In this document: one piece after another, positions 14,549 through 58,427 of the stretch
Numbering within the stretch: position 1 is the first letter of the stretch
Layout: each line of letters starts with the position of its first letter
Origin: Promethearchaeota archaeon
GTDB taxonomy: Archaea; Asgardarchaeota; Lokiarchaeia; Sigyniarchaeales; SOKP01
NCBI GenBank assembly: GCA_016839555.1
Contig: JAEOUA010000012.1
Location: 96,001-160,000, forward strand
Reading direction: 5' to 3'
Length of the DNA: 64,000 bases
Program-made: the position numbers and the translations under genes
Notes under the pieces: generated by a model
Told to the model about the DNA's origin: nothing
The model's input: only the letters and a program-made list of their open reading frames with translations
The model's database searches: none

Positions 14549-14596
14549 AATACAACCAAGAAAAAAAGTTCAAACCAAGATTTTTTTGGTTGTATT
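14549..14596 (-). promoter_or_regulatory. Putative attenuator hairpin/U-tract between the Ile/Leu/Val leader and porG
   Basis: Perfect 11-bp inverted repeat AATACAACCAA/TTGGTTGTATT overlapping the leader stop, enclosing a second TCTTGGTT copy and a T7 tract on the transcript strand. Confidence 0.6.
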
Positions 14597-14699
14597 ATAA
14601 AATTGAAATAATTACTACTACTTGTAGTAATAAAATTACAATACCTAATAATAATAAGTTTAGAACTGGTGCTGCATTATTATAGTCCATAGAAATCAT
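14595..14699 (-). CDS. Putative Ile/Leu/Val attenuation leader peptide MISMDYNNAAPVLNLLLLGIVILLLQVVVIISIL (34 aa)
   Basis: Translated by hand; 19 of the last 23 codons are I/L/V; co-oriented and about 94 nt upstream of porG; alternative ATG at 14690. Confidence 0.65.
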   Translation of the reverse strand: MISMDYNNAAPVLNLLLLGIVILLLQVVVIISIL

Positions 14700-14904
14700 A
14701 GTGTTCTAACCTTTAATTATTATTATATTATCTATTTTTAAGTGGTAAATTTTTTTTTAATTAAAAATTTTTTGATTAGATATGAAAAATTAAAGATAAT
14801 GATCAATTACCTATCTTAATCTGAAATGAATGTTATATTTTCTATAAAGATTTTTAAGATTTAATAGTAATTAATAATAAAAGTTTAAATCCCCTATAAA
14901 GTCA

Positions 14905-15432
14905 ATGAACACCTTACGCTGTCCCAAATGTAAAGAGGGAATAATAGAGATTTCCAAAACGATATATAATCTCCCGGATAATGACAAAATGCTTTTAATA
15001 AAATTAGAATGCAACAAGTGCGATTTTATTAATAAAGATATTATCCCAATAACAACTCGAACCGAACCGGGTATCTCACAATTAAAAATAACTAATGAAA
15101 AAGACCTTATATCTAAAGTGTATCGATCCCCCACAGCAAAAATAGAGATTCCTGAATTAGAACTAGAAGCTGAACCTGGCCCAGCAGCCCCTTTTTATTT
15201 CACCAATATTGAGGGAATATTAAATAGGTTTGAAAAAGCAGTAATTTCATATAAAAATGCATTAGTAGCAGATCAACTTGAAACTAAAGATATTGATGTA
15301 ATCCTTGAAAATATAAAAAAAGCGTATGATGGAAATTTTTCTTTTACCTTGAAAATTATCGACCAAAGTGGAGGAAGTTATATAATCCCGGAAGATAAAT
15401 CAAAATACAGTTTTATAAAACTTCACTCATAA
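14905..15432 (+). CDS. ZPR1 zinc-finger domain protein
   Basis: CPKC..CNKC, VYRSPTAKIEIPELELEAEPG, TNIEGIL, IIDQSGGSYI. Confidence 0.9.
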   Translation: MNTLRCPKCKEGIIEISKTIYNLPDNDKMLLIKLECNKCDFINKDIIPITTRTEPGISQLKITNEKDLISKVYRSPTAKIEIPELELEAEPGPAAPFYFTNIEGILNRFEKAVISYKNALVADQLETKDIDVILENIKKAYDGNFSFTLKIIDQSGGSYIIPEDKSKYSFIKLHS

Positions 15433-15542
15433 TTTCTTACGAATGATTATAAGTTGTTATTTTCAACAATAATAAGTGTTAGGAATTATATAAAAGTAAA
15501 ACTCTTCTAAGAATGTAGTAAATTATTAATAAGTGATAAAAT

Positions 15543-16382
15543 ATGTATAAATATGGCGTAAATCTATTATTATGGACAAGTTATTTTACTCAAAATAATT
15601 TAAATTTGTTTCCTCTCGTAAAAAGTTTAGGTTTAAATGTAGTAGAGATACCCTTGTTTAGTCCCGAAAAATTTCCTACAAAAAAAGTAAAAAAGGAGCT
15701 CGAAAAATATGATTTAGAAGCATGCGGGTGTTATGGATGTTCTGCTGATGCTGATATTGCTTCTCTTGATGAAGATGTTCGAAAAAGAGGCATTGAAAGG
15801 TTTAAATTGGCCATTGATAAAGCTCATATGATCGGTGCTAAAAAAATCGGAGGTGTATTATATAAAGCAGGGGGCATCTTTACAGGATCCGCACCAAGTA
15901 ATGAGGAATGGACTTCTTCTGTCAATTCAATGAAAGAAATTGCAAAGTATGCTTCTCAATATGATATTTCAATCTGTATTGAACCGGTTAATCGCTATGA
16001 AACTTATTTTATCAATACAGCAGAGGATGCGGTAAAATATTGTAAAGATGTAGGCGAGCCTAATATCTCAGTATTATTAGATACACATCATATGAATATA
16101 GAAGAATCTAACTTTAATGATCCAATTATAAACACCGATCATTATTTGGGACATTTTCATGCTTCTGAAAATAATCGTGGAATACCAGGCACAGGTCTCG
16201 TAGATTGGGTTCAAGTCTATAAGGCATTAAAACAAATTAAATATAAAGGAAGAGTGATAATAGAATCGTTTTATCTTGGTTTTGGAAATATCTGGAAGAA
16301 AGTTGCAAAATCACCCAAGATTTTGTTGACACAAGGATTGAAATTTCTTAAAAGCGTTGAGCAAGAAGTATTTCAAGAATAA
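15543..16382 (+). CDS. D-psicose/D-tagatose 3-epimerase family sugar epimerase
   Basis: EPVNRYET, LDTHHMNIEE, HFHASENNRGIPGTG, IESF. Confidence 0.88.
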   Translation: MYKYGVNLLLWTSYFTQNNLNLFPLVKSLGLNVVEIPLFSPEKFPTKKVKKELEKYDLEACGCYGCSADADIASLDEDVRKRGIERFKLAIDKAHMIGAKKIGGVLYKAGGIFTGSAPSNEEWTSSVNSMKEIAKYASQYDISICIEPVNRYETYFINTAEDAVKYCKDVGEPNISVLLDTHHMNIEESNFNDPIINTDHYLGHFHASENNRGIPGTGLVDWVQVYKALKQIKYKGRVIIESFYLGFGNIWKKVAKSPKILLTQGLKFLKSVEQEVFQE

Positions 16383-16632
16383 TTTTTAATTCTTAATTTC
16401 TGGTTAAAGTTTTTTAGAATTCAAATCTATAATAATTATAAAAGAGATTTATACTAAAATATAATATATTTTAATGTGAGTTGAATTATGAAATGGCGAA
16501 AAGAATGAATATTGGGATACTAAAATTCTTTATTTAGTTTAAATTTCTCCGTTTTCCCAAACATTTATTTAAAAGTTTTTTATTGCATGGTTAAAAATGT
16601 ATTTGATTAAAACCCAAAAAATAAAAGGAAAA

Positions 16633-17808
16633 TTATTTTTTAGATAAATATCGAATCTTGACCAACAATTCTCTCAGTTCCATTAAATCCTTATCCTCAT
16701 CAACATAACTTTTTTTAACTCCTTCTGAAAAAGGAAGATGCTTTATTTCTTTTCCCCTCAAAGAAACCATTTCACCAAAATTACCATTTAATACTAGATT
16801 CACAGCAGCGAGTCCAAAACGTAATCCTAAAATTCTATCAAAAGCATTTGGCGTTCCGGCTCTCATAGTATGTCCAAGTACAACACTTCTTATCTCAAGC
16901 TCCGTATCATTCTTCCTAAATTCTTCTTTTAAATCCATCCTGGATCTCAATTCCTCAACTAACAATTCTGAAATATTTAAATAGTTGAGTTTTGGGTTTC
17001 CAAATGGATCTTTTGGTAAATTATCAAGAGTTTCTTGAGAGATAGTAGTTAATTGGTTTTCTAATGAATTTTTAGAAGGATAAGCTCCTTCAGCACACGC
17101 AATTATATGATACTTATAACCTGCATTAACTCTTTCCTTAAGAACGTTAACAATATCTTTATTAAAATCGAATGCTTTTTCAGGAATTAATATAATATCA
17201 GCTCCCGCGGATAATCCACTGTATAAAGTTAAAAAGCCTGTATCTCTTCCAAAAATTTCTACAATAAACACTCTCTGGTGCGAACGAGCAGTAGTGGTTA
17301 AGTTATCTAAAATATTGGAAGCTAATTGAGTCCCACTCCAAAAACCAAAAGTGTAATCTGTTCCCTTAATATCGTTATCAATCGTCTTGGGGCAGCCCAC
17401 AACCTTAGCATTAGTATGTTTAAATAAGGTGGCTGCAACCCCTAAGGTATCATCCCCTCCAATTGCTATGAGCGCATCTATTCCCAGCTCTTCGAACTTT
17501 TGATGCATGGTTTGAGCTATTTCTTTCTCTTTTTCTTCTTTTTCCCTTTCGTTTTCTATTCCAAGGGTAGCCTTAAAAGGATTTGTTCTACTCGTATATA
17601 ATAGGGTCCCTCCTTTTGTGTGTAAATCATCTTGTTCAGCGATATTTAAGGGAATAGTGAGACTTTCCATGAATCCTTTCCATCCTTTCTCGATTCCCAC
17701 GCATTCAATATTTGAATCATAGGCTTTCAACATTGTGCCATATATGACTCCATTAAGGCCTGGAGCATCACCTCCGCCCGTTAATATACCAATTTTTTTA
17801 ATTGTCAT
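16633..17808 (-). CDS. pfkA: 6-phosphofructokinase, PfkA family, probably PPi-dependent
   Basis: TGGGDAPGLN, GGDDT, PKTIDND, LGHTMRAG; GGDD Asp and PKTIDND Lys are the PPi-type residues. Confidence 0.9.
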   Translation of the reverse strand: MTIKKIGILTGGGDAPGLNGVIYGTMLKAYDSNIECVGIEKGWKGFMESLTIPLNIAEQDDLHTKGGTLLYTSRTNPFKATLGIENEREKEEKEKEIAQTMHQKFEELGIDALIAIGGDDTLGVAATLFKHTNAKVVGCPKTIDNDIKGTDYTFGFWSGTQLASNILDNLTTTARSHQRVFIVEIFGRDTGFLTLYSGLSAGADIILIPEKAFDFNKDIVNVLKERVNAGYKYHIIACAEGAYPSKNSLENQLTTISQETLDNLPKDPFGNPKLNYLNISELLVEELRSRMDLKEEFRKNDTELEIRSVVLGHTMRAGTPNAFDRILGLRFGLAAVNLVLNGNFGEMVSLRGKEIKHLPFSEGVKKSYVDEDKDLMELRELLVKIRYLSKK

Positions 17809-18159
17809 ACAATCATTTGAGTTTTCTAATTATAATTGAATTATTTTACATTCGTAGAATATGCTTATTATTATAAAAATTTGTGTATTAATTCATAAAA
17901 AAGAGCCATAAAATAAGCTATTCTTCTTTTGTTTTATCTTATTTTTTCAATCTATAATAATAAAGATTCGTCAAATCCATTTTTACTACCTTCTGGAGCT
18001 ACTAATTCCAGAACCAATTCATTTCTTTCATCAAATTATTTGAAATATATTTAAATATAAATTAATCATTAAATAGAATCATATTTCATTCTATAAATTA
18101 GCAGTAATTGATATATAAAAATATTAAAGAAAATAAAAAATAATATTAATTATATCTAT

Positions 18160-19398: not shown

Positions 19399-19570
19399 AT
19401 CTAATATTCCTCAAAAATCTTGATAGTTTTTAATATTAATATAATTTATTCGAAAAATTGAGTTATTACTTTAACAATATATAGTCCTTTTGCTAAAATA
19501 AGTTTTCTTAGAATATAGAATCTTTTTCGAATAATTTAATATTCAATAGGATTTAATGATAAATAAATCA

Positions 19571-19592
19571 TCGTGAAATTTCTGTTTCACGA
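19571..19592. promoter_or_regulatory. Palindrome upstream of acyl-CoA dehydrogenase / downstream of the tRNA (operator or terminator)
   Basis: TCGTGAAA-N6-TTTCACGA perfect 8-bp inverted repeat. Confidence 0.4.
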
Positions 19593-19649
19593 ATTATTAG
19601 CTATATTATGATAATATAATAAATTAATACAATTATTTAATAGAAAAAG

Positions 19650-20227: not shown

Positions 20228-20238
20228 ATCTAATAGAT

Positions 20239-22478: not shown

Positions 22479-22491
22479 AAGTAATACAAAC

Positions 22492-29405: not shown

Positions 29406-32400
29406 TTATACTTCGTCTTTTTTCCTCCAAATAAGCAAATATATTATTCCCGTGATGATTAACCCAGGTATTATTAAACTCCATGGATTCCAATTGGTAA
29501 CGCGTAATAAATAGAAGGACAAAGTTAAGAAGCTTGCAAAAAATGCGATAATGGGATAATAATGTTTAGTAATATTTTTCAATCGATTTAGGAAACGATA
29601 GACCTTATAGTTCATAGATTTGATTACTTTTAGCTCATCCTCATCAAGCTTATCTAAGATTTCTGGGCTTTCATAATATATATTAAGTCTGGGATCATAT
29701 TTGCCTGGCAATTCTCCTGAACTTATTAAGGTAAGAAGATGATCTTGAATATTCTGTTTTTTAATCTTCAATTCCTTTTTAATGAACCCAATAGTAAGAA
29801 ATTCATTTGCCACCGCTTTAATTGCCATTTGAATGAAGCTTTTTAAAATCTCACTTTCCAGAGATTTTGATTTTTCACATAACACTACTTTGAATTCATT
29901 AATATATTTAGAGAAATCGATTAAAATATGCTTGTTTTTAGTTTCAAAATCTTTGGCTTGTTTATTGAATTCTCTTATTATTTTTCTTAACTGGGCATTA
30001 ATTTCATTAATTGTATCTTCAATATTTTCTACTCGTTTATCAAGTCTTAAATTAGCTCTTTTAAATTCATTAGTATCGATATAATCTTCAATCCTTGTTT
30101 GAAGTTTTCCTAATAAATGATTTAATTGTATTTTACTGGTATTAATATAATTAACTAAACTAGTGCGAAAGAGTTCATTTTTTTTTATTAAAAGGTTATG
30201 ATTAAGATTCTTCAATTCCTCATTAAATTTTATCATGAATTCCTCTTTTTTCCTAATAAAATGTTCGCGGATCTCAGGGCTTAATTTTTTTGTATTTTCA
30301 TCTTTTTCTAAGCTTTCATCCAACCTATCCAATATTTCTTCTTCAGTATTTTTAATCATGGAGTTATAATCTTCTTTTTTTTGTTCAAATTTCTCTTTAA
30401 TTAAGTTATAGGAGTCTGACTCTTCAATATTTTTATTCATGTTATTTACAAATGAGCTAAAATTTTCTTTTAATTGGGTAAATTTTTTATCTATAAAGCT
30501 CTGAAGATTCTTAAAAATTGTTAGATTATTTTCTATACTCTTAACTGCTAGGTCAGAATCTTTTACAATGTTTTGAAAGTAATTTTGTGATGCTTTAAAC
30601 TCTTTATTACTCTCAATATCAATGTCTAATTCTTTAACTTTATTTCTAAATCGTTCTCGCATAGCTTTATCGAAATCTTCTAAATCCTTAATTCTTTCTG
30701 CGAGTTCATTTAAATTTATCTTAAGGGTTCGATTTTTAATACATGAATCATAAAGAGCTAATGTTTTTCCTATTGTCTGATTATTGTATTGGATTATTTT
30801 ATTATTAATAAAATTCCGAAGTTCTTTATTTTTATAATAATGGTCTGTATAGAGCAAGAGAATTTTATCATCTTCAAGGAGTTTTCCATTAATTTTTGAG
30901 ATATCAATCAATTGCTTTATTCGCGGGACTGTGTCTTTCAGTTTCATCTCTATATATTTAGCTACATCCTTTATATCTAAATAAGAAGAATCACTTTTTT
31001 TGGCCAATAGCAGTACTTTATCATGAATAAAATCATTAATATATTCCTTCTTTAAATTTTTGATTTCATTTTCTATATATTCCTTAAATCTTTCCCATTG
31101 CATAATCGTTAGGTTTGATTTCTCATCAAAATTCTCTATTAAGCTCCTATTTTCTTTCAATTTCTCGTTATAAGAATTGTCATATTCATTATAATAAGTT
31201 AAAATCGCATTAAATCCATCAGAAATCTCTTTCACATTTAAATCAGATAAGTCTTTCTGATCTAACTCCTTTTTATAATCAATTAATTTGTTTCTACAAT
31301 CATTTATTTTTTCTGAAATAAAGGTATCAAATTGTTCAATTATAATCCTATTTCTCTCTTCTATTACCTTATGTTTAACATCTTGTATACCTTCGGCAAC
31401 TTTTTCGATAAGTTGTTCTTCTGATTCTTCTAATTTTTCTTGAAGATATCGAAAAAGAATATAAAGTTTTTGACGTGATCGACTCTCCTCTCTTACCTCT
31501 TTTTGTAATTCTAGAAGTTGTTCCAATTTATTGTCTATAAGCACATCTGACTCTTTTTTAATAAGTTCAAATGCTTCTTGAAATTGATTATTTCTTACTT
31601 TTTTCTTAGATTTATTTAATATAACTGATAGTTCATTATTTAATTCATTATCAATATTATTTAAAGTAGTCTCAATTTCCTTGAAAAAGTTTAATCCCTT
31701 AGAGTAATAATTAAAAACTTGGTTTAATTCATTTTTAATGCTAACCCAATATGATATTATTTCTTTATGCTTCTGATTAAGTTTTTTGTTCTTAGATGTT
31801 ATTTTTTGAGAAATAGCATAAATTTTTTCGTCAAATTTTTCCACTTCATTAATAATTTTGTTGTATTCTTCAAAAATTAAATTTAATTTCTCATCACTAA
31901 ATTCTTCTTCAAGTGTATCGCTAATAAAACTTCTGAATCCATCAATTCTTTTATTAAAATGATGCTCTAAATTTCTTAGTCTATTCTCCAGCTCATCTAA
32001 AATAATTTTATATTTTTGCAGTTCCTCTTTATTTGAGATTTTTTCTTTTAATTGTATATCAATTTCATTTAACTTTTTACTTAAAATGGAATATAGTTTA
32101 TGCCATTGCTTTATTTCATGAAATAAGGTGGCTTTAATACTAATATAATATAAATCTTCATTAAAAGAATTTTCAATATTTTCATTTAGAAAATCTGCTT
32201 CCATAAGTGCATTTCTTATGATATATTTTAACCTTTCTTTTGCTATTTCTATTTCATCAATAAGCAAATAACTTTCTATTTCTTCCTCTATCTGTGAAGC
32301 AATATTTTTTAATTTTAAAGTCATATTATAAATATCGTTTTTAATTTCATTTAGCACTTTTTTTTCTTCAAAAATTCTCTCAGAGTTAATTTTTATATCT

Positions 32401-33821
32401 GAAATAATTACTTTTTCTAAAAAAAAATCCAAATAAAAATAATATTTGGTTAAGATGAAGAATTTCCTTTTTTCTTTTATTTCTCCACTAATAAAGTGAT
32501 TATTAATCATACTAGTAATAATCGGACGAAAATCTCTGATTTTAACTTGATCCCTTGGATATTTTGAATTAAACTTATCCATAATATCTGTTAAGGATAC
32601 TATACTTTTTTCAGATAAACGCTCATAAAACTCCGAAGCTAAAATCTTTTCACGAGGCGTAAGATTGCGAAGATAGTTCTTAAATTCAATTTGATTATTT
32701 AAAATTTTTAAGTTAAAAGTATAATTTAAATTAATATAGGATATAATCTCATCAAGCACTTCATCTAATCCAAATAAACTATTAAGTTGATTTACATCTA
32801 TATACTCATTTTCTTCAATTTCCTTAAATATAACCCGCTCTATCTCCTCTATAAATTTTTTCCAGATTATGGAAAGAAGAATTATTAATTTTGAGAATTT
32901 GATTAACCCTATGGCATCCCATAGAGCTTTGGAAATTAAAATCCTATTTAAATTAATATTAATATAAGAATAGATTCCAGAAGGATTATAATCTAATAAC
33001 CAGGCGTAGTTTTCTAAAATATATGAAATCCAAAATGTTGTGTTAATTTTTCCTTTCTCTTTTTTAAAACTAAATCCACCATCATCCTTATGAAATTGGT
33101 GCAAATATTGGATAGAGTCTTCTTCCACCTTGTATTCCAAATCTAAATATTTAAGACAAAGTAATTTAAAAACAATGGAAGGTTCTGTTTTTAACCTATT
33201 TATATATAAGGAGAATTTTGATTTATAGGTTCTTACATCAATACCTAATATGGTAAATAGTTCCAAAACATAATAGAGGGTCCTTGCAGGAGATGCTTTT
33301 TTACATATTTCACAATTGTGCTCAAGACAATGAACAAATCTCTCATTTTTATCATGATTTTGAATAAATTCTTTTATTTGAGTTAAAATAACTTCTTCTC
33401 CTTTAGAATTTAAATAAATCTCTAAATATCCCATTAAATGAAGGGATATCATGGCAAAATATGTTGACCATAGATCAGCTTTTTTTTGTGGAGAATATGG
33501 TGATAATCGAAATCCTAATGAGCTTCCTTCAATTTTTTCACATTGTAAAATAAAATCATAAATCTGTTCCTTTATATTTTTTTGTAGATCTTTTTTCAAA
33601 TATTTTTTAAGTAGTAAAAACCAAAAAATGTGTTCCAAATTAAGGGAACTATTAAAAAGATTTTTCGTGAAATAAATGAAAAATTCACTTATATTTTCAT
33701 ATCTACTAAAAAAAAAGGATCCGATTGCTTTTCTCTTTATCAGAACAAACGATTCAAAGGGCTCCTTCTTAAATACTGTTATATAGGGGTACGCAGTTTT
33801 ATTTAATTGAGCAATCGTCAA
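29406..33821 (-). CDS. Large protein: N-terminal prenyltransferase-like repeats, long coiled coils, winged-helix (PCI-like) segments, 2 C-terminal TM helices
   Basis: ADLWSTYFA and FHKDDGGF repeats; heptad-rich E/K stretches; LISSGELPGKYD-type motifs; hydrophobic C-terminus. Confidence 0.6.
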   Translation of the reverse strand: MTIAQLNKTAYPYITVFKKEPFESFVLIKRKAIGSFFFSRYENISEFFIYFTKNLFNSSLNLEHIFWFLLLKKYLKKDLQKNIKEQIYDFILQCEKIEGSSLGFRLSPYSPQKKADLWSTYFAMISLHLMGYLEIYLNSKGEEVILTQIKEFIQNHDKNERFVHCLEHNCEICKKASPARTLYYVLELFTILGIDVRTYKSKFSLYINRLKTEPSIVFKLLCLKYLDLEYKVEEDSIQYLHQFHKDDGGFSFKKEKGKINTTFWISYILENYAWLLDYNPSGIYSYININLNRILISKALWDAIGLIKFSKLIILLSIIWKKFIEEIERVIFKEIEENEYIDVNQLNSLFGLDEVLDEIISYINLNYTFNLKILNNQIEFKNYLRNLTPREKILASEFYERLSEKSIVSLTDIMDKFNSKYPRDQVKIRDFRPIITSMINNHFISGEIKEKRKFFILTKYYFYLDFFLEKVIISDIKINSERIFEEKKVLNEIKNDIYNMTLKLKNIASQIEEEIESYLLIDEIEIAKERLKYIIRNALMEADFLNENIENSFNEDLYYISIKATLFHEIKQWHKLYSILSKKLNEIDIQLKEKISNKEELQKYKIILDELENRLRNLEHHFNKRIDGFRSFISDTLEEEFSDEKLNLIFEEYNKIINEVEKFDEKIYAISQKITSKNKKLNQKHKEIISYWVSIKNELNQVFNYYSKGLNFFKEIETTLNNIDNELNNELSVILNKSKKKVRNNQFQEAFELIKKESDVLIDNKLEQLLELQKEVREESRSRQKLYILFRYLQEKLEESEEQLIEKVAEGIQDVKHKVIEERNRIIIEQFDTFISEKINDCRNKLIDYKKELDQKDLSDLNVKEISDGFNAILTYYNEYDNSYNEKLKENRSLIENFDEKSNLTIMQWERFKEYIENEIKNLKKEYINDFIHDKVLLLAKKSDSSYLDIKDVAKYIEMKLKDTVPRIKQLIDISKINGKLLEDDKILLLYTDHYYKNKELRNFINNKIIQYNNQTIGKTLALYDSCIKNRTLKINLNELAERIKDLEDFDKAMRERFRNKVKELDIDIESNKEFKASQNYFQNIVKDSDLAVKSIENNLTIFKNLQSFIDKKFTQLKENFSSFVNNMNKNIEESDSYNLIKEKFEQKKEDYNSMIKNTEEEILDRLDESLEKDENTKKLSPEIREHFIRKKEEFMIKFNEELKNLNHNLLIKKNELFRTSLVNYINTSKIQLNHLLGKLQTRIEDYIDTNEFKRANLRLDKRVENIEDTINEINAQLRKIIREFNKQAKDFETKNKHILIDFSKYINEFKVVLCEKSKSLESEILKSFIQMAIKAVANEFLTIGFIKKELKIKKQNIQDHLLTLISSGELPGKYDPRLNIYYESPEILDKLDEDELKVIKSMNYKVYRFLNRLKNITKHYYPIIAFFASFLTLSFYLLRVTNWNPWSLIIPGLIITGIIYLLIWRKKDEV

Positions 33822-36229: not shown

Positions 36230-37849
36230 CTACTTCTCAGTTTGTTTATAAGACTGTATCTTATTTAGTCCTTTCAATAATGCAAGCACACTACTCATTA
36301 CAATATCTTCATGTGTGGCGCTGGTCGTTACTATATAATGAGTATCTAAATCCATTAATTCTATCATTACATTTCCAAGAGCATCACTTCCACCGGTAAT
36401 AGCGTCGATATTATATTCAAGCAATTTTACTCTACTCATTGGTTCAAAACATTTAACTATGGCTTTTACAGAAGCATCTACAGGTCCAACACCGGTTGAT
36501 GATGCTAATTTTTCAATAAATTCTCCATTGTTTTTGATTTTAAGACGAACAGTGGAAGTAGGAGTTATAGAACCTGTTAATACTGTCAATTCATCGAGAA
36601 TAACATATTGTTCTTCTTCTGGAAGCTCTCCCATAACATCTTTCACGATTGCGAGAAAATCTTCTTCGGCAACTTCGTGCCCCTTATCTCCGTATCTTTT
36701 GACATTTGTAAATATCTTCTGAAATTGTTCATCTGAAGGATGAATCCCTAAGTCTTCTAATTTGGCTTTAAGCGCATGACCTCCTGTATGTTTTCCCAGC
36801 TTAATAGATTGTTTTACAATTTCTTCTACATTGTCTGTTCTTTTAATGCCGATTAATTCAGGAGTGATAGGCTCATATGCTCTCGCATTTTTGATCATTG
36901 CATGGGCATGAATTCCTGATTCGTGAGCAAAGGCATTCTGTCCTATTAAAGGTTGGAGACGACCAATTTTAATCTTGCCCCCGCAATAGCTTTCTATGAG
37001 TTTTGCGGTAGGAAATATTAATCTTGTATTTATATTCATTGGTACTTGATAAAGAGCATATAGAGACATCGCAGTTTCTTCAAAAGAAGCATTGCCAGCC
37101 CGCTCACCAAGCCCCATAATGGTTGTTTGAGCCTCTGACGCTCCATTTTCAAAACCTGCGATGGTGTTTGCTACAGCTAATCCAAAATCATTATGACAAT
37201 GAACTGCAATTCTAATATTTTTTGGTAAAGCTTCATAGTTTTGTCTAACAATAAATCCAAAGGCATTTGGGGAGATAGTGCCCACAGTATCAGGAATATT
37301 GACACGCGTGGCCCCATGCTCAATAGCTGTCTTATTCGCTTTTATTAAAAAATCAAGATCAGATCTCGTAGCATCTTCAGCTGAAAATAAAACTTTTTCA
37401 TAATGATCCTTCGCATAAGATACATGTTCAGCGATGCTCTCTATAACCTCTTGAGGGGTCATTTCTAGTTTTTCTCTCATATGTAATTCTGATGTGGCGA
37501 TAAAGACATGGATACTATCCATATCTGCCTCGATAACTTTATCTATATCCAATTTTTTCATCCGTGCTAATCCAATGATCTCGGAATTTAGTCCTAATTT
37601 TGAAATATCTCTACAAGCAGCAAAATCTCCCTCTGAGATTACGGGAAATCCTGCTTCAATAACATCAATTCCAAGCTCATTTAATGAGCTTGCTATTGAT
37701 AACTTCTCTTCGTGTGTGAACGATATGCCTGGAGTCTGCTCACCATCACGAAGAGTTGTATCAAAAAAATAAGCCTTATCAGGAAGCAATAGATTCTTCC
37801 TTAGCTTTTCCATCATAGTCGAAACATAAATTTCCTTCTTTTCCATCAT
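36230..37849 (-). CDS. leuA: 2-isopropylmalate synthase (LeuA/CimA family, with regulatory domain)
   Basis: DTTLRDGEQTPG, HCHNDFG, GERAGNA, HESGIH, GVGPVDA; upstream Leu-rich leader favours LeuA over CimA. Confidence 0.85.
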   Translation of the reverse strand: MMEKKEIYVSTMMEKLRKNLLLPDKAYFFDTTLRDGEQTPGISFTHEEKLSIASSLNELGIDVIEAGFPVISEGDFAACRDISKLGLNSEIIGLARMKKLDIDKVIEADMDSIHVFIATSELHMREKLEMTPQEVIESIAEHVSYAKDHYEKVLFSAEDATRSDLDFLIKANKTAIEHGATRVNIPDTVGTISPNAFGFIVRQNYEALPKNIRIAVHCHNDFGLAVANTIAGFENGASEAQTTIMGLGERAGNASFEETAMSLYALYQVPMNINTRLIFPTAKLIESYCGGKIKIGRLQPLIGQNAFAHESGIHAHAMIKNARAYEPITPELIGIKRTDNVEEIVKQSIKLGKHTGGHALKAKLEDLGIHPSDEQFQKIFTNVKRYGDKGHEVAEEDFLAIVKDVMGELPEEEQYVILDELTVLTGSITPTSTVRLKIKNNGEFIEKLASSTGVGPVDASVKAIVKCFEPMSRVKLLEYNIDAITGGSDALGNVMIELMDLDTHYIVTTSATHEDIVMSSVLALLKGLNKIQSYKQTEK

Positions 37850-37891
37850 TTTATTTTCCTATTCTAATTTAATTTAATTTAAAAATCAAAT

Positions 37892-37947
37892 GCCTTCTTA
37901 ATCGTATAAGATTTTTAGCCTCTAAATCTTATTACCAATTAAAAGGC
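37892..37947 (-). promoter_or_regulatory. Putative attenuator hairpin between the Leu leader and leuA
   Basis: GCCTTTTAATTGGTAATAAGATTT pairs with AAATCTTATACGATTAAGAAGGC (few bulges), followed by ATTTGATTTTT. Confidence 0.65.
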
Positions 37948-37950: not shown

Positions 37951-38055
37951 TTATAATAATAAGAGTAGATTTAATATACTCAAAGATAAACTAAGGGATA
38001 AAATCTGTTTTAAATTTAGTTTTCTAAAAAGTATCGTGGTTTTCAATTGAAGCAT
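37951..38055 (-). CDS. Putative Leu attenuation leader peptide MLQLKTTILFRKLNLKQILSLSLSLSILNLLLLL (34 aa)
   Basis: Translated by hand; 15 of 34 residues Leu, ending in 5 consecutive Leu codons; AAGGA upstream of the ATG; about 100 nt before leuA. Confidence 0.72.
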   Translation of the reverse strand: MLQLKTTILFRKLNLKQILSLSLSLSILNLLLLL

Positions 38056-45626: not shown

Positions 45627-46448
45627 CTACGTTAATCTTTTTGTTTTTGCGAATTCATTTCCCAAATATGCTCCACCTAGCGAAGCTATTGCAACAAATG
45701 GCAGAAATGAAAGTATGGGATAAATTAAAATAGAAGCTATCGCACCAAGGGCAAAAAGATGAGCTATTATTATCAAGATAAAATATATAATTGCGTTAAG
45801 GATACTTACCTTTAAATTTAGTAATATATACCCTGAAATAAAGTTTCCTATGCCAAACAAAATTATAAGCTCAGCAAATAGTCCTAGTACTAATATCGGT
45901 ATGGTTTGTTTAACCAAATTTTCAGGTGTTATATATATTGGGATATTTCTTAAAATAAAATTCGCAAAAACCCATATATTTATTATTGTCAGAACAACAC
46001 CTATGCCTATTAATACGATAATAGATATAATGAATCTCAAAAGAAGTGAAGAGGTCCCTCTTCTTCTTAAATTGTCTTTTATTATATCATCCATTTTCTC
46101 TCGATTTTTCACTAATTCAAGATCGTAAGCCGGCGAAAATTCATCAATGAAATCCGTCAACAGAGTTTTTAATATTGTTTTAACCAATCCATTATTATCT
46201 TTTATACTGACAATTGCGGCTCCAAAAATATTTTCTTGAGTATTTAATTCGAATATTACTTTGCTATCTTTACCAAGGTCGACAAAATCTACAATACTCT
46301 CTAATCCTTCTCGGCTAAAATTCACGACGGAACTGAAAAAGCCCAATATTAAATTTTCATCAAAAGGTTGCTTAATAAAGCTCTCTGAATATAATAGCAT
46401 ACCATTTCGACGCAATATATATAAACTTTTAATCAATTTTCTTCTCAC
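45627..46448 (-). CDS. Longin-like N-terminal domain fused to ~4 TM helices
   Basis: SLYILRRNGMLLYS..DENLILGFFSSVVNFSRE longin-type pattern; hydrophobic C-terminal half. Confidence 0.65.
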   Translation of the reverse strand: MRRKLIKSLYILRRNGMLLYSESFIKQPFDENLILGFFSSVVNFSREGLESIVDFVDLGKDSKVIFELNTQENIFGAAIVSIKDNNGLVKTILKTLLTDFIDEFSPAYDLELVKNREKMDDIIKDNLRRRGTSSLLLRFIISIIVLIGIGVVLTIINIWVFANFILRNIPIYITPENLVKQTIPILVLGLFAELIILFGIGNFISGYILLNLKVSILNAIIYFILIIIAHLFALGAIASILIYPILSFLPFVAIASLGGAYLGNEFAKTKRLT

Positions 46449-46457: not shown

Positions 46458-48170
46458 TTATATTAATTTTAAATATTCGATATAATCCCTTAAATTACAT
46501 TTTACGATTTCGAAATTTATTAATTCAGAACCAAATAAATGAACAATTTTTTTAATTACTTGGGTTGCATCCTTTTTTGGAAATATTTTATATTTCTCAT
46601 TCCTACGCTCTTCAATAATTATTACCGAATCAAGATTAAATAATGTTTTTAGAGTCTCTTCCGTTGGATAATTTAATTCAATTTTTATGATTTCTCCCTC
46701 TTGAGGAACTTGGCATGTCAACTCGTCTACAATTCCAACCTCTGTTTTTTTGTCAGTTATAGTAATTACTTTGTCGCAATTTTCTACAAACTCTTCAGGC
46801 CCTTCTACCAAGAATATTACATGAAATTCTTTTTTAATATTATCTAATGCGTTTTTGAATTCCTTATATTGTAATCTGTTAAATATTTCTTCTTGCATTG
46901 AAAACATTATGATATCAGCAGATTGTATAAGAGCTCTTGCGATTGAAAAAAGTAAGAAGTCTATTGGTTCTAAATCTTTTACTTTTTGATTTTCTTTAAA
47001 TGTTAATCCTGTTAATTGGAGTATTTTTTTAATAAAATCCCGTTTCTTCTTGAATTTTTTTAGAAAAGTAATGAATTTCCAAAAATATCCTTTAGTAATC
47101 AATTCATCGATTAGAGTTGATAATCCAGCTTCTTGTATTTTAGTTCTTAATTCCTCATCCTCAAAACTCGATTCAAATTTAATCTTTATGTTAGATTTTA
47201 TTGCATCCTTGACTTTCTGGTTGGAAATTTTTGGTTCGATTGGTTTAGGTAACACGAAGATTCTCTTTTGATCTTCTTGAGAGAGTAATTGTACAAATTT
47301 TCCAAAAAATTTTATAGTTCCAGAGAAAACTTGCTCTTTACCCGCTATAGCATTATATAATTTCATTACATTTGCCTTTTCAATAAATTCCTCTTTTTTG
47401 GTATTGAATAAAATTCCTATTGATTGCCCTCTATGTACTTTAAGCGAGATATTATTAATTAATTGCCCAGTTGAAACTTTTTTTAATAATAAGATTTGAT
47501 ATTTTTTATAATACTCCACCAACCTTAATAGCTTTAGAATATAATTAATTAAGTGGTCTATTATATCTGTGATATGAGGTGGGTTTAATTCCTCCCAATT
47601 TCTTAATTCCTCAAAATCCAAAAAAGTTTCTAAGTTGATAATTTTTAAAAGGTTTCTTGAAAAGTAAAAAGTAGGTTTTAAAGGATACTTTTCAAGATCC
47701 ACCTTTAATTCCGTAGAAAACTCAGGAAAATATAGTATGATCTCCCTAAAATATGGAATATTATCGATAGCATAATTTTCAAATCTTTGGTCTATTAATT
47801 TTACCTCCATATCTAATATTTTTAAATGATATTGGAATTCCCGTTCTATTAACTCATCAATCCGATTAATAATTTTCATTGGACTTATCAACCCGTCATC
47901 ATCAAAATCGGGATCTATCAAAACATCATTAAAATCAACTTCCGTCTCAATTGGGGTATATATTTCTAAGATGGGCATTGCTTTCTCCAAAACATCCTGA
48001 TTAGGAAAGAATAATATCTCAATATAGCTCCTTTTATAATCCAAATCCAAAATGGTTGATACTCCGAAAGTATCTTTTTTATAAATCATCCAATAATGCT
48101 CAGAATGTCTGATAGTAGTATTTATTTTTTCCCGAATTAACTCTAATTCTTCCTTTCTAGTTCTATTCAA
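46458..48170 (-). CDS. UBC/RWD-like domain(s) fused to a degenerate ABC ATPase
   Basis: DLEKYPLKP..LRNW..NPPHITDII; then ISLKVHRGQSIGIL with no Walker A lysine motif, and SIARALIQSADIIMFS in place of Walker B. Confidence 0.6.
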   Translation of the reverse strand: MNRTRKEELELIREKINTTIRHSEHYWMIYKKDTFGVSTILDLDYKRSYIEILFFPNQDVLEKAMPILEIYTPIETEVDFNDVLIDPDFDDDGLISPMKIINRIDELIEREFQYHLKILDMEVKLIDQRFENYAIDNIPYFREIILYFPEFSTELKVDLEKYPLKPTFYFSRNLLKIINLETFLDFEELRNWEELNPPHITDIIDHLINYILKLLRLVEYYKKYQILLLKKVSTGQLINNISLKVHRGQSIGILFNTKKEEFIEKANVMKLYNAIAGKEQVFSGTIKFFGKFVQLLSQEDQKRIFVLPKPIEPKISNQKVKDAIKSNIKIKFESSFEDEELRTKIQEAGLSTLIDELITKGYFWKFITFLKKFKKKRDFIKKILQLTGLTFKENQKVKDLEPIDFLLFSIARALIQSADIIMFSMQEEIFNRLQYKEFKNALDNIKKEFHVIFLVEGPEEFVENCDKVITITDKKTEVGIVDELTCQVPQEGEIIKIELNYPTEETLKTLFNLDSVIIIEERRNEKYKIFPKKDATQVIKKIVHLFGSELINFEIVKCNLRDYIEYLKLI

Positions 48171-51100
48171 TTTTTGGAACCTCCATTGCTTTGTATCTAA
48201 AATATTCTTCCATTTTACTATCAGATTGATTTATTCCCAATATAGAATTATCTCCAAACTCTTCTCCAACTTCCTTCCTGAGTTTAATTTTAGGCAAATT
48301 AGATAAAATTATATAGTCTGTACCTACCTTATTTTCCAGTGCTTTTTTAATTCCTTCTATTGCTTCTAATCTTTCTATGGCATCATCTTGGGGATCATAG
48401 AAAAATAATTCTAATGATCTTCCACCGCCTGGGAGTTGAGATAATAATTCTCTAGGTGTTCCGAAATCTATCATACCACGCCCTCTACCAAAAATAACAA
48501 CTTTATTACAAAACTTAGATTCTTCGGGATAATGGGAAATAACTAATAAAGTGGTATTAAATTTTTCATTAATTTTAGTAAGAGATAGCCATAATCTTTC
48601 TCTCACCACAGGATCTAAACCACTCGTAGGTTCATCAAGGATACAAAAAACTGGATTATGAATTAAAGACATTGCAATGCTTACCCTTCGTTTTTCCCCA
48701 CCAGATAAGTTCTTTAATTTTTCATTTATTTTATCCTCAATTTCAAGACTTCTTAAGGTTCGTTTTGCTTTGCTAACTATTTCTTTTTCAGTCATTCCAT
48801 ATTGTTTTCCAAAATAGATTAAATTTTGAAGAGTAGTAAAGTTCAAATATATTTTTCCTAAATCTTGTGGGACATATCCATAGATCGATCTAAATTTTCT
48901 CTTATTTCTTTTAGCATCCATGCCATAGATTTCGCATATTCCTTTATATTTATGCATTCCTAAAACAGCTTTAATAAAAGTAGATTTTCCAGCGCCACTT
49001 TCTCCTAATATACCCAGAATTTCACCATGTTCTATTTTTAAGGAAACATCATTAACAATCAATTTTCGTCTTATATAGATGTTTAAATTTTCACAATATA
49101 AGGTGGGAAATTTCTTCAAATAGTCTCTACTTAGTTTATCTTTGAAACCGAAAGTAGTTCTTATTTTTTTGACTATATAATTTTTTAAATAATAGAAAAT
49201 ATTAATCAAAATTAATAAAACTAAAAGAAGGCCTTCAGATATGGATAAAAAAGCTAATAAATTATTCCATGGGGTAGGATCAAAGGCTTGATCATATCTT
49301 ATTTCATCAATAAATACTAATGCATAAGCGATATTTCTTAGATCTCCCCCAAAAAAAGCATCATCACCAACTCCACCCGTTGTTTGGCTAATGCAGAATC
49401 GAAACCATCTCACTAAATTTTTTATATGTTCTGGCTGCAAATTATACTCATATAAGGCAATTGATCCAAAATAGGTTCCTAAAAATGAAGATGGTAAATC
49501 CAAAAGCGATGAGAGATATGGTATTACATTAAAACCTCCATCATTAGATTGTGCATTTTTGAGAAATTCCATCGCAGCCATTTCTGATAATGGTTCAATA
49601 CCCAAAAAATTTAGCAATGTTAATCCATAATATGTCGAAATTACATCCGAATGAAACCCATAAAATATTCCAAATCCTCCGTCTGCATTTTGAGAGGAAA
49701 CAAGCCAATGTCTTAAACTTATTGGATTTATGAGGGTTATAGCTTTCAAGCTTGTCAAACTATATACCGCCCAATAAGTACTTTCAATAGTAGATATATT
49801 TGAGTTTACAACATCTAATAAAGGTTCATAAGCAGCACCGAAATAAGAAATAATTATATCCAAGTCTTCAGTTAACTTAAAACCTCCATCGGGATTTTGT
49901 AAGGAAGCTAAATATCGTGCTGTAGCAGTTTCATTATTAATCCAGGTTCTAGTATAAGGTAAGAATAATTGACTTATATAAACTGCACAATAAGTAGAAA
50001 AAACACTAGAATTATATCCTGGTTGAGAACCATAACCTCCATCTACAACATTATAGCATGAATTCACGAAATTTGCTATGCTATTTATATTTATAAATAA
50101 TGGAAATTTAGAACCGGCATAATTATAAATAGATTTTACTCCTAAATAATTACTCAATAGAGAAATCTCCCCAATTAATCCATTCATCGCTTGATGATCA
50201 TATAACCAATTATAATAATTTATTTTTACCGTATCACTTATATTTAAGGAAGGTGAAGCATTATTTTCCAATAACCGGATTGAATTCATGGCAGCCCATC
50301 CTGATTTAAAGTCTGACGTTATATTTGAAAAGGAATGAGATCCGAATCCTCCATCAGTATTTTGACAACTAAGTATATAATTTTTAGTACGATTTTCAGA
50401 TGATGGTGTACTATTAAAATGATATATTGACCATAATGAATAATAGGTAGAACTTATATCAGAAAGACTGGCACTTGATGGAGTTGCTCTATATCCTCCA
50501 TCTAATATATTATATAAAGTAGTAAAATATGTTTTAATCCAAGATTCTTCTGTAGAATTATAAGTATTATTCAACTCTAAATAAGCTTTAATTCCAAAAT
50601 AAGTTGTTTCTGCCGTAATAGTATATGTACGATTAGAAAACCTATAATTCCCAAAAAATGCGATTGTATGATTTCCTAACTCTTTTATATAATTTGTTAG
50701 ACTCTCGTTATTATTTTCCAAAATAGAATTAAAATTTAATAATTTTGCTAATCTTATTCCATAATACGTGGAAATTATATCTGCTTCTTCCGCCTCTTCA
50801 TTGTATTTAAAACCATAGCCATTTTCTGCTAAAGAATCCTTAAGATACTCCTTTATTCTATAAATTCTAATTTGATGAGCGGGATTTTCTAAAAATGAAT
50901 CGCTTAAAAGATTAATTGTTTGTATTGCTTTATAAGTGGAATACATATTGCCTAAACCATTTATATCTGAATATGAACCGTCATCATTCTGTTTTTCGAA
51001 TAAATAATCTAAAAAAAATTGTTTCCTGAAAAAAATTAAATGCGGATTCTTATTAGGATTTATTAAACTAGAATTACTAAATGCGATACTTGAAAAATTA

Positions 51101-51336
51101 ATAGAATCAATCGCTCTATAGTTTGCTACTATAGTGGGTTCAACAAACAAACGACTTGAAGGATTTTGATGGGTATATGCAAAATAGAACATATCAGTTT
51201 TATAAGCCTCAACCTCATTTTCTTCGAAATATATTATAAACTGAGAATTAATTATGAAATAAGTTACTAATTGGCTAAAATAAAGCGCAATAATTATTAT
51301 AACATACGTTAATTGGCGTTTCTTTCTTCTATCCAA
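48163..51336 (-). CDS. Membrane protein: TM - prenyltransferase/squalene-cyclase-like repeats - TM - ABC ATPase
   Basis: About 10 QNxDGGF-type repeats; GESGAGKS, LSGGEKRR, LDEPTSGLDP, ISH. Confidence 0.85.
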   Translation of the reverse strand: MDRRKKRQLTYVIIIIALYFSQLVTYFIINSQFIIYFEENEVEAYKTDMFYFAYTHQNPSSRLFVEPTIVANYRAIDSINFSSIAFSNSSLINPNKNPHLIFFRKQFFLDYLFEKQNDDGSYSDINGLGNMYSTYKAIQTINLLSDSFLENPAHQIRIYRIKEYLKDSLAENGYGFKYNEEAEEADIISTYYGIRLAKLLNFNSILENNNESLTNYIKELGNHTIAFFGNYRFSNRTYTITAETTYFGIKAYLELNNTYNSTEESWIKTYFTTLYNILDGGYRATPSSASLSDISSTYYSLWSIYHFNSTPSSENRTKNYILSCQNTDGGFGSHSFSNITSDFKSGWAAMNSIRLLENNASPSLNISDTVKINYYNWLYDHQAMNGLIGEISLLSNYLGVKSIYNYAGSKFPLFININSIANFVNSCYNVVDGGYGSQPGYNSSVFSTYCAVYISQLFLPYTRTWINNETATARYLASLQNPDGGFKLTEDLDIIISYFGAAYEPLLDVVNSNISTIESTYWAVYSLTSLKAITLINPISLRHWLVSSQNADGGFGIFYGFHSDVISTYYGLTLLNFLGIEPLSEMAAMEFLKNAQSNDGGFNVIPYLSSLLDLPSSFLGTYFGSIALYEYNLQPEHIKNLVRWFRFCISQTTGGVGDDAFFGGDLRNIAYALVFIDEIRYDQAFDPTPWNNLLAFLSISEGLLLVLLILINIFYYLKNYIVKKIRTTFGFKDKLSRDYLKKFPTLYCENLNIYIRRKLIVNDVSLKIEHGEILGILGESGAGKSTFIKAVLGMHKYKGICEIYGMDAKRNKRKFRSIYGYVPQDLGKIYLNFTTLQNLIYFGKQYGMTEKEIVSKAKRTLRSLEIEDKINEKLKNLSGGEKRRVSIAMSLIHNPVFCILDEPTSGLDPVVRERLWLSLTKINEKFNTTLLVISHYPEESKFCNKVVIFGRGRGMIDFGTPRELLSQLPGGGRSLELFFYDPQDDAIERLEAIEGIKKALENKVGTDYIILSNLPKIKLRKEVGEEFGDNSILGINQSDSKMEEYFRYKAMEVPKIE

Positions 51337-53593: not shown

Positions 53594-53659
53594 ATTCCTG
53601 AAAGTTTCCTTGGTTTTACGAATTAATTTCTCCTTTATCTCATTTATATCGGGGATAAA

Positions 53660-54814: not shown

Positions 54815-54990
54815 ATTAGAATTAATAATTAATAATTAATAATAAAAGACAAATGATAAAAAATAAAAATTAATTTAATTATAAAATTCGAAATTAAAAA
54901 TTTTGTCTTCTCTTATTCCACACTCATATTTCAAATATTTAATTGAAATTCCATTTCTATTATATAAAAAACCTAGAAAGATACTCTTAA

Positions 54991-56121: not shown

Positions 56122-56333
56122 AATAATATACTAAAACAAGCTTTTATTTACTATAATTTTTTATTAATCCAAATTATAATAGCCTATAAAAGTATTAAAA
56201 AGCCCAGATACTAAGGAATTTGTAATTTACCTTCATTTTTATGTTTTTTAGAAATTTATTTAAGTTATATTAAAATACTTAAGTATTGAAATCAATTTTT
56301 TTTGATTTAAAAAAAATCAAATGGGATGAATTT

Positions 56334-56750
56334 ATGGTACATATAGAAAGAAAGATAGAAATTAACGCACCTGTAAATGGAGTGTTTGATATTTTGGATG
56401 AGCCCGAGAAATTTGCCATTTGGAATATTACAGTAAATTCTGTTGACATAATTGAGCCTAAGAAGTCAGGATTTGTCAAATCTACTGTTGGAGATTTTAC
56501 ATCCACTAGATATGAGGTTGTTAAAAATGATAGAATATTTTATAATATAGAAGGTGGTGTCTTTGATAAAATGGGATATTCATTGAAAATAAAGGGAGAT
56601 GGAACTGAAGCAACCCTCTGGGCAGAATTTAAGGATGAGAGCAAAGAGAAAATGCTCCTGAAAGCTGGGGAAATACTATTAGATTGTCTCAAGAAATATG
56701 CCGAGTTTTTAGAAAGCGGTGGAAATCCTGCAGAGTATAAAAAAAAATAA
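56334..56750 (+). CDS. SRPBCC/START-like family protein
   Basis: IEINAPVNGVFDIL, WNITVN, LKKYAEFLESGG; ATG at 56334 preferred. Confidence 0.78.
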   Translation: MVHIERKIEINAPVNGVFDILDEPEKFAIWNITVNSVDIIEPKKSGFVKSTVGDFTSTRYEVVKNDRIFYNIEGGVFDKMGYSLKIKGDGTEATLWAEFKDESKEKMLLKAGEILLDCLKKYAEFLESGGNPAEYKKK

Positions 56751-57129
56751 GGTTCTTGAATTCTGTGTAATTTTAAATCCTCTTTTTTTTATTTATTGAT
56801 AAAAAAAATTAAGCTTTTTCCTTTTCCAGTAGCTCATCAATACTAAAATTCCTATCACTAAAATTGCTATTATTAATTAGTAATTTTAAATTTCTATATT
56901 TCTAAGAAATTTTTAAACCTCTTTATTCATATAACTTCATTTTTTATAGATAAAAATAAATTTAATTCAAAATTAGTATTTTTTATTTTTAACTTTAATT
57001 ATAATCTAAAAAAAGGAGATAAGCAGATTTTAAATTAAAATGCAATAATAATATTTTTAGGATTTTTATAATTATCTTTATGAGATTAGATTATAAACAA
57101 ATAATAATAGTATTTATGTCGGTGAATAT

Positions 57130-58074
57130 ATGGATTTTTTTACACATTTAGTTATTGGAGCACTTGTATATGCGATTTTCTTCAAGGGAATTACCTGGAA
57201 TTACTTATTTTATGCAATTTTTTTCGCAATTTTACCTGATTTAGATATTTTCCTTTCCCCTTTAAAACGGAAATTCAAATCTGTTTATCTTGAGCATCGT
57301 TCGGGTTCCCATTCTTATGTTATAGGGACTATTGCATCCGCATTAATAGGTGGTATATATTCTCTTTTCACAAACCAGTCATTTTTGATTATTTGGATGA
57401 TTGGAACAATTTTTTATGGAATTCATGTATCTCTTGATTTACTCACGACTACAAAAATCCCCTGTTTTTATCCCTTTTCCAAGAAGGAATTTTGTTTTTA
57501 TGCGGAAAAGGCTGGGAGCTCATTTACTTTAATAATTTCTTTGATCTTTCTAGTAAATATAGCAATAGTATATTTTAATAGCCCAAATAAATCAACTTCC
57601 TTTTTAGTAATTAATATCTATACTTATTTTTTCCTAATTTACTATCTCTATCGGATAATAACAAAATTCTGGATTGATCATCATTTAAATGAAGATCAGA
57701 AATACATTCCGGGAATTTTACCCATTTATTTCTATATTTTTGAAAAAAAGATAATTGACAATACATTATCATTTTCTCTTAAGAAAAAGTCTCATTTTTC
57801 ACGAACTAAATTAATTTATAAGAATAATTCAAACTTAACACCTCAGGAAATGATGCTTTTCTCAAGAGGAATGGAACTCTGTTCAGAAGATTATTATTTG
57901 GCAAAATGGACTGCATTTCCAGAATTTTTAAGAATGGATGGTATATTTTCTATTAAATTTTTCTTCTTAGAACCTATGACTCGCTTAAAAGCGATGTATC
58001 TTCAAATTGATTTTGATGTAGATACTGGACAGATATATAGTTTAAATCAAAAGTTTGGACCAATTAAAACATGA
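57130..58074 (+). CDS. Membrane-bound metal-dependent hydrolase (YdjM-like)
   Basis: MDFFTH, LPDLD, HRSGSHS, HVSLDLLT. Confidence 0.85.
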   Translation: MDFFTHLVIGALVYAIFFKGITWNYLFYAIFFAILPDLDIFLSPLKRKFKSVYLEHRSGSHSYVIGTIASALIGGIYSLFTNQSFLIIWMIGTIFYGIHVSLDLLTTTKIPCFYPFSKKEFCFYAEKAGSSFTLIISLIFLVNIAIVYFNSPNKSTSFLVINIYTYFFLIYYLYRIITKFWIDHHLNEDQKYIPGILPIYFYIFEKKIIDNTLSFSLKKKSHFSRTKLIYKNNSNLTPQEMMLFSRGMELCSEDYYLAKWTAFPEFLRMDGIFSIKFFFLEPMTRLKAMYLQIDFDVDTGQIYSLNQKFGPIKT

Positions 58075-58108
58075 TTTTTCTTTCAGAATTTCCTTCTAAT
58101 CATTATTA

Positions 58109-58237
58109 TTATGTTGCTAAGACATGTTTTTTTAAATTATATTTTTCCACTAGATATTTATAAAACCCAAATATTTTTTTCAAATTTAATGCCCCTAACT
58201 TCTCAATATGGATGTCAAAATCAAGATTTTCTTCCAT
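58109..58237 (-). pseudogene. Truncated 5' gene fragment after the Trp leader (possibly trpE-like)
   Basis: MEENLDFDIHIEKLGALNLKKIFGFYKYLVEKYNLKKHVLAT then stacked stops; shares DFDI(H/N)IEK with the gene start behind the trpA fragment. Confidence 0.45.
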
Positions 58238-58373
58238 TCTTTTTCATTCATTTCTTTTTTTCCTTAATTTTTATTAAAATTAATACAATCTCTTGTTTTA
58301 TAGATTAAAATTATAAAAAATATAACAGAAAATTATTCAATATAAAAATTCATAATTAGCCATTGCACACGTT

Positions 58374-58427
58374 CTATTCGTGCCAACGCCAAGCCCAAAA
58401 CCAAGTTTCGTTAAAAAAATAGGTCAT
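58374..58427 (-). CDS. Putative Trp attenuation leader peptide MTYFFNETWFWAWRWHE (17 aa)
   Basis: Four TGG codons within seven codons; local GC spike; hairpin spans the last Trp codons with the stop in its loop. Confidence 0.75.
   Translation of the reverse strand: MTYFFNETWFWAWRWHE

Follow-up and report, generated by a model that had tools for sequence, protein, structure and literature searches.

Leader peptides with terminal cognate-codon runs and stop-adjacent hairpins as probable ribosome-based amino-acid sensors in Promethearchaeota

Sensing of amino-acid supply through translation of a leader peptide is textbook bacterial regulation. In the enterobacterial leuL, ilvL/ivbL and trpL systems a short upstream open reading frame (uORF) with a run of cognate codons stands before the cognate gene and is followed by RNA structure. 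Full-text literature searches returned bacterial attenuators only, and no report of an archaeal leader peptide was found. The same layout is encountered in a Promethearchaeota archaeon (NCBI GenBank assembly GCA_016839555.1, contig JAEOUA010000012.1), within the 64,000 nucleotides (nt) at contig positions 96001-160000 that constitute the window analyzed here. (The host genome has 3.74 Mb and 30% GC; its nearest relatives are Promethearchaeota/Promethearchaeia metagenome-assembled genomes (MAGs), in keeping with the Asgard lineage assumed in a preliminary description of the sequence.) Three uORFs on the minus strand of this window, all of them present where that description had placed them, are rich in Ile, Leu and Val before a 2-oxoacid:ferredoxin oxidoreductase operon (uORF1), in Leu before leuA (uORF2) and in Trp before a remnant of trpE (uORF3). 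They are very probably ribosome-based amino-acid gauges, to judge from their sequence and its conservation.

Comparison with the enterobacterial attenuators brings out likenesses as well as differences. In both, leaders specific for one amino acid are placed on committed steps (here leuA and, elsewhere in the genome, the citramalate synthase gene cimA) and multivalent leaders on shared steps (here ilvE and the oxidoreductase); the Ile/Leu/Val (ILV) peptide of uORF1 also resembles ilvL in composition. The differences lie in the archaeal host, in the placing of the codon run at the very C-terminus of the peptide, in the absence of any sequence or Rfam match, and in the RNA: the enterobacterial leaders form 1:2, 2:3 and 3:4 alternatives, whereas one stop-adjacent hairpin is found here. 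At leuA, moreover, no conserved U-tract follows the hairpin, while the distance from stop to start is fixed and a Shine-Dalgarno (SD) sequence is conserved.

Two other systems bear comparison. E. coli TnaC senses free tryptophan through its nascent peptide and induces a catabolic operon, with Rho as the termination factor. The present leaders are like tnaC in having their sensing codons, or a stalled ribosome, at the stop, where the RNA just downstream is covered and a factor could be kept off it (Rho in that case and, quite conjecturally, FttA/aCPSF1 in this one). In mycobacteria, polycysteine leaderless short ORFs are Cys-responsive translational attenuators that work without an intrinsic terminator, RNA structure lowering the availability of the SD (bioRxiv 10.1101/834739). 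Here too the cognate run lies in a short first ORF close behind a promoter; in contrast with the mycobacterial system, in which the SD is affected, the leuA SD lies beyond the hairpin, at a distance of ~28 nt, and nothing was found with which the hairpin could mask it.

All leader families described below share one anatomy. Each uORF closes with its cognate run, and at the stop comes a hairpin, its 5' arm starting 0-6 nt past the stop in the Leu, ILV, Ile and Ala/Ile/Val/Leu leaders and overlapping the last Trp codons in the Trp leaders. The N-terminus is variable, and the uORFs have promoter-like and SD-like signals of their own. It is likely, in our judgment, that these leaders gauge their cognate charged tRNA by way of the ribosome, through the combination of a terminal run and a single hairpin, and that they form a lineage-wide set in which leaders of trpB2, cimA and ilvE are included. 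The proposal that the uORFs of the window are amino-acid-specific leader peptides and not chance ORFs is borne out for all three, cognate codons and position being conserved at orthologous loci.

Intergenic DNA of the host genome has a GC content of only 20%, so that Ile/Leu/Phe-rich ORFs are common in it. For a chance test, long ORFs were called crudely and every ATG uORF 5' of each was listed genome-wide. Among the 402 ATG uORFs of 25-45 amino acids (aa) that lie 5' of long ORFs, uORF1 ranks first in I+L+V fraction and uORF2 ranks first in Leu fraction, which upholds the claim that enrichment in cognate residues exceeds chance; four Trp residues are held by only 3 of 2100 genome uORFs, and one of these three precedes trpB2. 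In a second ranking, of all genome uORFs by single-residue enrichment within their last 12 codons, the top four leaders are those of trpB2 (W), ilvE (A/I/V), leuA (L; uORF2) and cimA (I). The host genome thus has five cognate leader-gene pairs (leuA, oxidoreductase, trpB2, cimA and ilvE), plus uORF3. Other uORFs that rank high in enrichment look like chance or noise and precede unrelated genes (Phe-rich before larC, Thr before an mtaA-like gene, Ile before a proteasome chaperone gene, Asn-rich opposite cimA), and no leaders were found before the two copies of ilvD, the two ilvC-like copies and the four ilvB-like genes of the host genome.

The Leu leader, uORF2 (37951..38055, minus strand), has 34 codons, 15 of them specifying Leu (MLQLKTTILFRKLNLKQILSLSLSLSILNLLLLL, ending ..ILNLLLLL-stop), and ends 101 nt before the start of leuA (36230..37849, minus strand; 2-isopropylmalate synthase, NF002085, E 8e-172). 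The hairpin (37892-37947, minus strand; -17.1 kcal/mol, z -4.1) begins 3 nt past the stop, and the T-rich tract TTTGATTTTT (37881-37890) is directly 3' of it. An AGGA SD-like motif of leuA is found at 37857..37860 (minus strand); most orthologues have AGGT at -11..-8. Conservation was followed in 30 relatives and, separately, in a species-level genome collection, of which loci with distinct spacers were counted. In the relatives, a Leu-run ATG uORF lies 82-132 nt before leuA in 17/17 orthologues of two families (f1 and f2), and the leader is absent at 4 leuA orthologues from GC-richer families. In the collection it is present at 50 Promethearchaeota loci, at which Leu accounts for 421/600 of the last 12 codons and 262/300 (87%) of the last six. 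What is conserved is the run and its position: all six synonymous Leu codons are used across orthologues, mean identity is 0.11 in the N-terminal part versus 0.55 for the last 12 residues, and the uORF varies in length between 18 and 89 codons, yet the median distance from its stop to the leuA ATG is 93 nt (interquartile range 91-96).

The hairpin is conserved along with the run. It starts 0-6 nt past the stop in 50/50 leuA leaders and ends at about +50 to +60. A covariance model made from ten sequences retrieved 35 leaders, and covariation was scored on these: compensatory change is seen at 20 of 21 pairs, a count that leans towards the structure because the alignment is fitted to the model, and the covariation score is 0.405 versus 0.239 for shuffled sequences (0/500 reach it), with slid partners scoring 0.14-0.19. 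(The covariance-model alignment was needed; consensus folding of an alignment made by MAFFT only recovered the outer stem only.) The leuA AGGT at -11..-8 is also at the position of a genome-wide G enrichment that is strongest in intra-operon genes, an indication that the leuA message has a leader and is probably a shared transcript.

Some further properties of the leuA leaders may be recorded here. The polarity of the hairpin is constant, with a pyrimidine-rich 5' arm like the 16S 3' end (ACCUUCU/ACCUCC) and a purine-rich, SD-like 3' arm (GGAAGGU, GGAGG), and GGTTAAA recurs, once past the hairpin and once where the true SD lies. Sequestration of the SD was rejected as a mode of control: the true SD is ~28 nt 3' of the hairpin, no start codon follows the SD-like 3' arm, and thermodynamically the pairing of 5' arm with 3' arm always wins. 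Likewise set aside was pairing of the Leu run with the inner 5' arm (UCUUAUUA:UAAUAAGA), which is present in the host genome and not conserved in other genera (e.g. at locus L007). Among Altiarchaeota, the leuA loci L178, L179 and L184 have uORFs ending ..LLLLLLRQRA, ..LLLLLRLRA and ..LLLLLLLRLRE, placed 77-175 nt upstream, and L182 and L186 also have Leu-run uORFs; these contigs have 40-47% GC upstream of leuA. Leu leaders may reach beyond Asgard archaea.

The ILV leader, uORF1 (14595..14699, minus strand), has 34 codons (MISMDYNNAAPVLNLLLLGIVILLLQVVVIISIL), 20/34 of them for Ile, Leu or Val, in the blocks LLLL-IVILLL-VVVII-IL-stop. Between its end and the TTG/ATG start (14501/14498) of the next operon there are 93-96 nt; this operon (11391..14501, minus strand) has four genes, for a 2-oxoacid:ferredoxin oxidoreductase of the POR/VOR family (gamma, delta, alpha and beta subunits). 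The uORF1 hairpin (14548..14597, minus strand; -13.8 kcal/mol, z -4.1) has the uORF1 stop codon in its stem, and A7 of its 5' arm pairs with T7 (14561-14567) of its 3' arm; orthologues keep the design GC(A/G)ACCAA-A(5-7)...T(5-8)-TTGGTTGC. The peptide pattern ..LLLS.(I/V)ILLL(Q/R)(V/I)VVI..L-stop is kept at 12 of the 18 family loci, is seen again in other Promethearchaeota MAGs and was not found in more distant oxidoreductase homologues. (For the window as a whole, the distances of 95-140 nt first given between uORF ends and downstream starts agree with the 93-96, 101 and 136 nt measured, and hairpin ends placed about 45 nt before the downstream start agree with ~42-50 nt.)

The family models do not separate POR from VOR: the beta subunit scores 393.6 bits with NF008818 versus 382.9 with PorB, both just under the cut-off (405), and the alpha subunit 412.8 with PorA_Arch versus 377.5 with VOR alpha, all below cut-off. 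The ILV leader is the only substrate hint, and the operon is a probable 2-oxoisovalerate enzyme. Since the layout and spacing of the leader are the same as at leuA, the operon would be expected to be induced on Ile/Leu/Val shortage, and the comparison suggests an anabolic role, in which the enzyme makes branched-chain 2-oxoacids by reductive carboxylation.

The Trp leader of the window, uORF3 (58374..58427, minus strand; 17 codons, MTYFFNETWFWAWRWHE), has four Trp in the sequence W-F-W-A-W-R-W-H-E-stop and is placed between two plus-strand genes. A gap of 136 nt separates it from a trpE 5' fragment (58109..58237, minus strand) that consists of the 42 codons of the trpE head; a stop comes next, and past it the sequence is unrelated. 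Of trpA, the C-terminal part (residues 206-270, 54% identity) survives at 60656..60850 (minus strand), and trpD, trpC, trpF and trpB1 were not found in the host genome by tblastn. The 5' arm of the uORF3 hairpin (58356..58392, minus strand; -11.7 kcal/mol, z only -1.6) includes the last Trp codons, and its loop contains the stop, an arrangement that is general in Trp leaders, which also have extra conserved long-range complements; the DNA block TGGCGTTGGCACG..TAGA.CGTG.GCAATGG is conserved in three genera. In a DNA search, a uORF3 homologue, MNGKGKYTRFLPITWFWAWRWRA, was found ~430 nt before an intact trpD-C-F-B-A-E operon in the relative G009; a second, MNDLNESTGFCKSTWFWAWRWHV, lies 144 nt before an intact trpE in the relative G010. 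(An ORF of ~62 codons, MKEYKCIICLYSRFSNLIGKNRKK..., is seen between the Trp leader and trpD of G009, at L065 1206-1400.) A relative of the same genus as the host (G005) keeps the Trp leader together with an intact trpE, and the loss in the host genome is therefore recent. With the trpE head and the trpA tail in place, and intact genes with the leader in relatives, the region has been aptly described as a trp remnant; on sequence grounds uORF3 is a recent relic of a deleted trpE, with no gene left to control.

The trpB2 gene of the host is intact (contig C5:556444-557847) and has a Trp leader of its own, the Trp-rich uORF MAINKISFWNAQWPWRWQNR, 133 nt upstream. In four families of the order, the majority of trpB2 loci have W-x-W-x-W(R)W uORFs upstream, some of them where upstream GC is 41-48%. 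W-x-W-R-W is the motif that relatives keep before their trp genes. The host organism probably depends on outside indole or tryptophan.

Two further leaders of the host genome are an Ile-rich uORF, MNIKIIPLEIILIIIGII, 116 nt before cimA, and an Ala/Ile/Val-rich uORF 161 nt before ilvE. Both are conserved, the ilvE leader being limited to one of two paralogue groups, and both have long hairpins from +1 to +5 after the stop. In the ilvE leader (C10:222934-223100) Ala is as frequent as Ile/Val/Leu (..VALAMAIAIAAAVLVL), and this is kept in orthologues; the leader may report alanine too, or may hint at an alanine-linked transaminase role. For histidine, no leader was found near hisG in the host genome, and a search of 20 relatives gave a single lead, a run of eight His codons (CAT and CAC mixed) followed by a stop in relative G012 (contig C16), 78 nt before a hisIE-like gene and hisG. 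This run has no in-frame ATG, its only in-frame start being a TTG 63 codons upstream; the +1 frame of the locus reads MYRNLMYITTITIIIK. A His hit in relative G025 lies inside another ORF and was dismissed. Elsewhere in the window there are two very long minus-strand ORFs of 1471 and 1057 aa (29406-33821 and 48163-51336), and Pfam gave no match for the ORFs at 46458-48170 and 45627-46448.

How such leaders might work follows a simple scheme. A ribosome lingering on the terminal run would sit on or against the 5' arm, so that the single hairpin stays open, and a ribosome that finishes and leaves would allow the hairpin to close. Starvation calls for more expression of leuA, cimA, ilvE and the trp genes, so that the closed hairpin should be the 'off' element for these biosynthetic genes; the oxidoreductase operon would likewise be induced by Ile/Leu/Val shortage. 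At leuA the conserved SD, the fixed distance between stop and ATG and the lack of a U-tract speak for control of translation or for factor-dependent termination, and against a bacterial intrinsic terminator. The oxidoreductase and Trp leaders have conserved oligo-U 20-38 nt past the stop, at which archaeal termination or pausing could occur. Three points are inferred: where a held ribosome would lie relative to the hairpin, which state is on and which off, and that the oxidoreductase serves anabolism.

Certain observations weigh against this explanation. A ribosome on the last Leu codon would reach only the lowest few base pairs of the ~21-base-pair leuA hairpin, and no element that the closed hairpin would block was found at leuA, the SD lying a further ~28 nt 3'. 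The spacer between the leuA hairpin and the SD contains a box rich in A/T (GTTAAATA-like), which might serve as an internal promoter. Finally, no leader is detectable at 6 of the 18 family loci of the oxidoreductase and at three trpB2 loci. (A separate observation concerns tracts of five or more T, T5+: where present, they cluster 17-38 nt past the uORF stop in all five families, and an RNA polymerase at such a cluster would be in contact with a ribosome that is translating the final leader codons.)

The nearest alternative is transcription attenuation of the bacterial type, in which hairpin and U-tract together would be an intrinsic terminator that stalling prevents, and for which transcription and translation must be coupled. 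We consider this unlikely, although the T-tracts in part favor it. Each leader of the window has a hairpin and a U-rich tract, as the preliminary description had said (at leuA, the hairpin and TTTGATTTTT); every leader spacer in the host genome has at least one T5+ tract; these tracts cluster 20-38 nt past the stop in five families; and they are present in 8/9 oxidoreductase leaders (1.4 expected) and 13/14 trpB2 leaders (9.1 expected), so that oligo-U termination or pausing is possible at these two. The distance of up to ~430 nt between Trp leader and trpD in G009 also suits control at a distance. It is at leuA that the terminator reading fails: orthologues do not keep a U-tract 3' of the hairpin, a hairpin with such a tract behind it being seen in the host genome only. 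T5+ occurs in only 14/50 spacers (shuffles give an expectation of 9.9), for the most part within the hairpin and hardly ever past it, where the sequence is A-rich across orthologues. Nor were conserved terminator/antiterminator alternatives found; a single hairpin is dominant in the leuA, oxidoreductase and cimA leaders. The T-run of the oxidoreductase leader is explained by its pairing with the A-run of the 5' arm, and archaeal RNA polymerase terminates at oligo-dT without need of a hairpin. No Rfam leader family is matched at gathering score either, a scan of the whole window having returned tRNA only, with no Leu_leader or Trp_leader.

It has also to be considered that the uORF-hairpin units might be separate small transcripts, of small protein genes or of dual-function RNAs, acting in trans or by promoter interference on downstream genes that are transcribed from a promoter within the A/T-rich spacer. 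Between the leuA hairpin and start, a TATA-like box (GTTAAATA / ATTTAAATA) is indeed common, with a geometry that resembles the TATA-like box before the uORF itself, and the orphan Trp leader persists without a gene. However, from a promoter at that box transcription would begin ~7 nt upstream of the ATG, so that the conserved AGGT, at the SD position, would not be part of the mRNA; amino acid and downstream pathway match in five independent families, which, with the tight spacing from stop to ATG, argues for an effect in cis; and the orphan leader reflects a recent loss specific to the host genome. All of this makes separate transcripts improbable. The probability is smaller still, and close to negligible, that the hydrophobic ILV and Leu uORFs sense nothing and are small membrane proteins or chance products of AT-rich DNA. 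Spacers of 20% GC abound in Ile, Leu and Phe codons, to be sure, and the C-terminal halves of these uORFs would form a transmembrane helix; but the two are genome-wide extremes, their conservation is confined to the cognate residues, with turnover of synonymous codons and free N-termini, the Trp leaders would form no hydrophobic helix, the pairing with a cognate gene is repeated in five families, and leaders are also found at loci with 40-47% GC upstream.

The sensing of charged tRNA by the ribosome is thus the reading that we prefer. A broader proposal can be made more tentatively, and with rather less than even confidence: that Promethearchaeota, and perhaps other archaeal phyla, possess a regulon of ribosome-mediated amino-acid sensors of non-bacterial design (C-terminal codon run, stop, single adjacent hairpin), the output of which would be translation initiation or re-initiation, or factor-dependent (FttA/aCPSF1) termination, and which would also induce a ferredoxin-dependent oxidoreductase through which branched-chain amino acids are made.

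For the organism, the leaders amount to a coherent set in one genome, for Leu, Ile, Trp (twice), Ile/Leu/Val and Ala/Ile/Val/Leu, and conservation of the set extends across an order within the archaea that are nearest to eukaryotes. That tryptophan synthesis was lost recently, with trpB2 kept, is recorded by the orphan Trp leader. There is a gain for annotation as well, in that the leader marks a POR/VOR-type oxidoreductase as an enzyme of branched-chain amino acids, probably anabolic. These short elements would lend themselves to tests of ribosome-RNA polymerase coupling in archaea and of control of termination or initiation by the ribosome, and they bear on the question of archaeal antecedents for eukaryotic uORF control.

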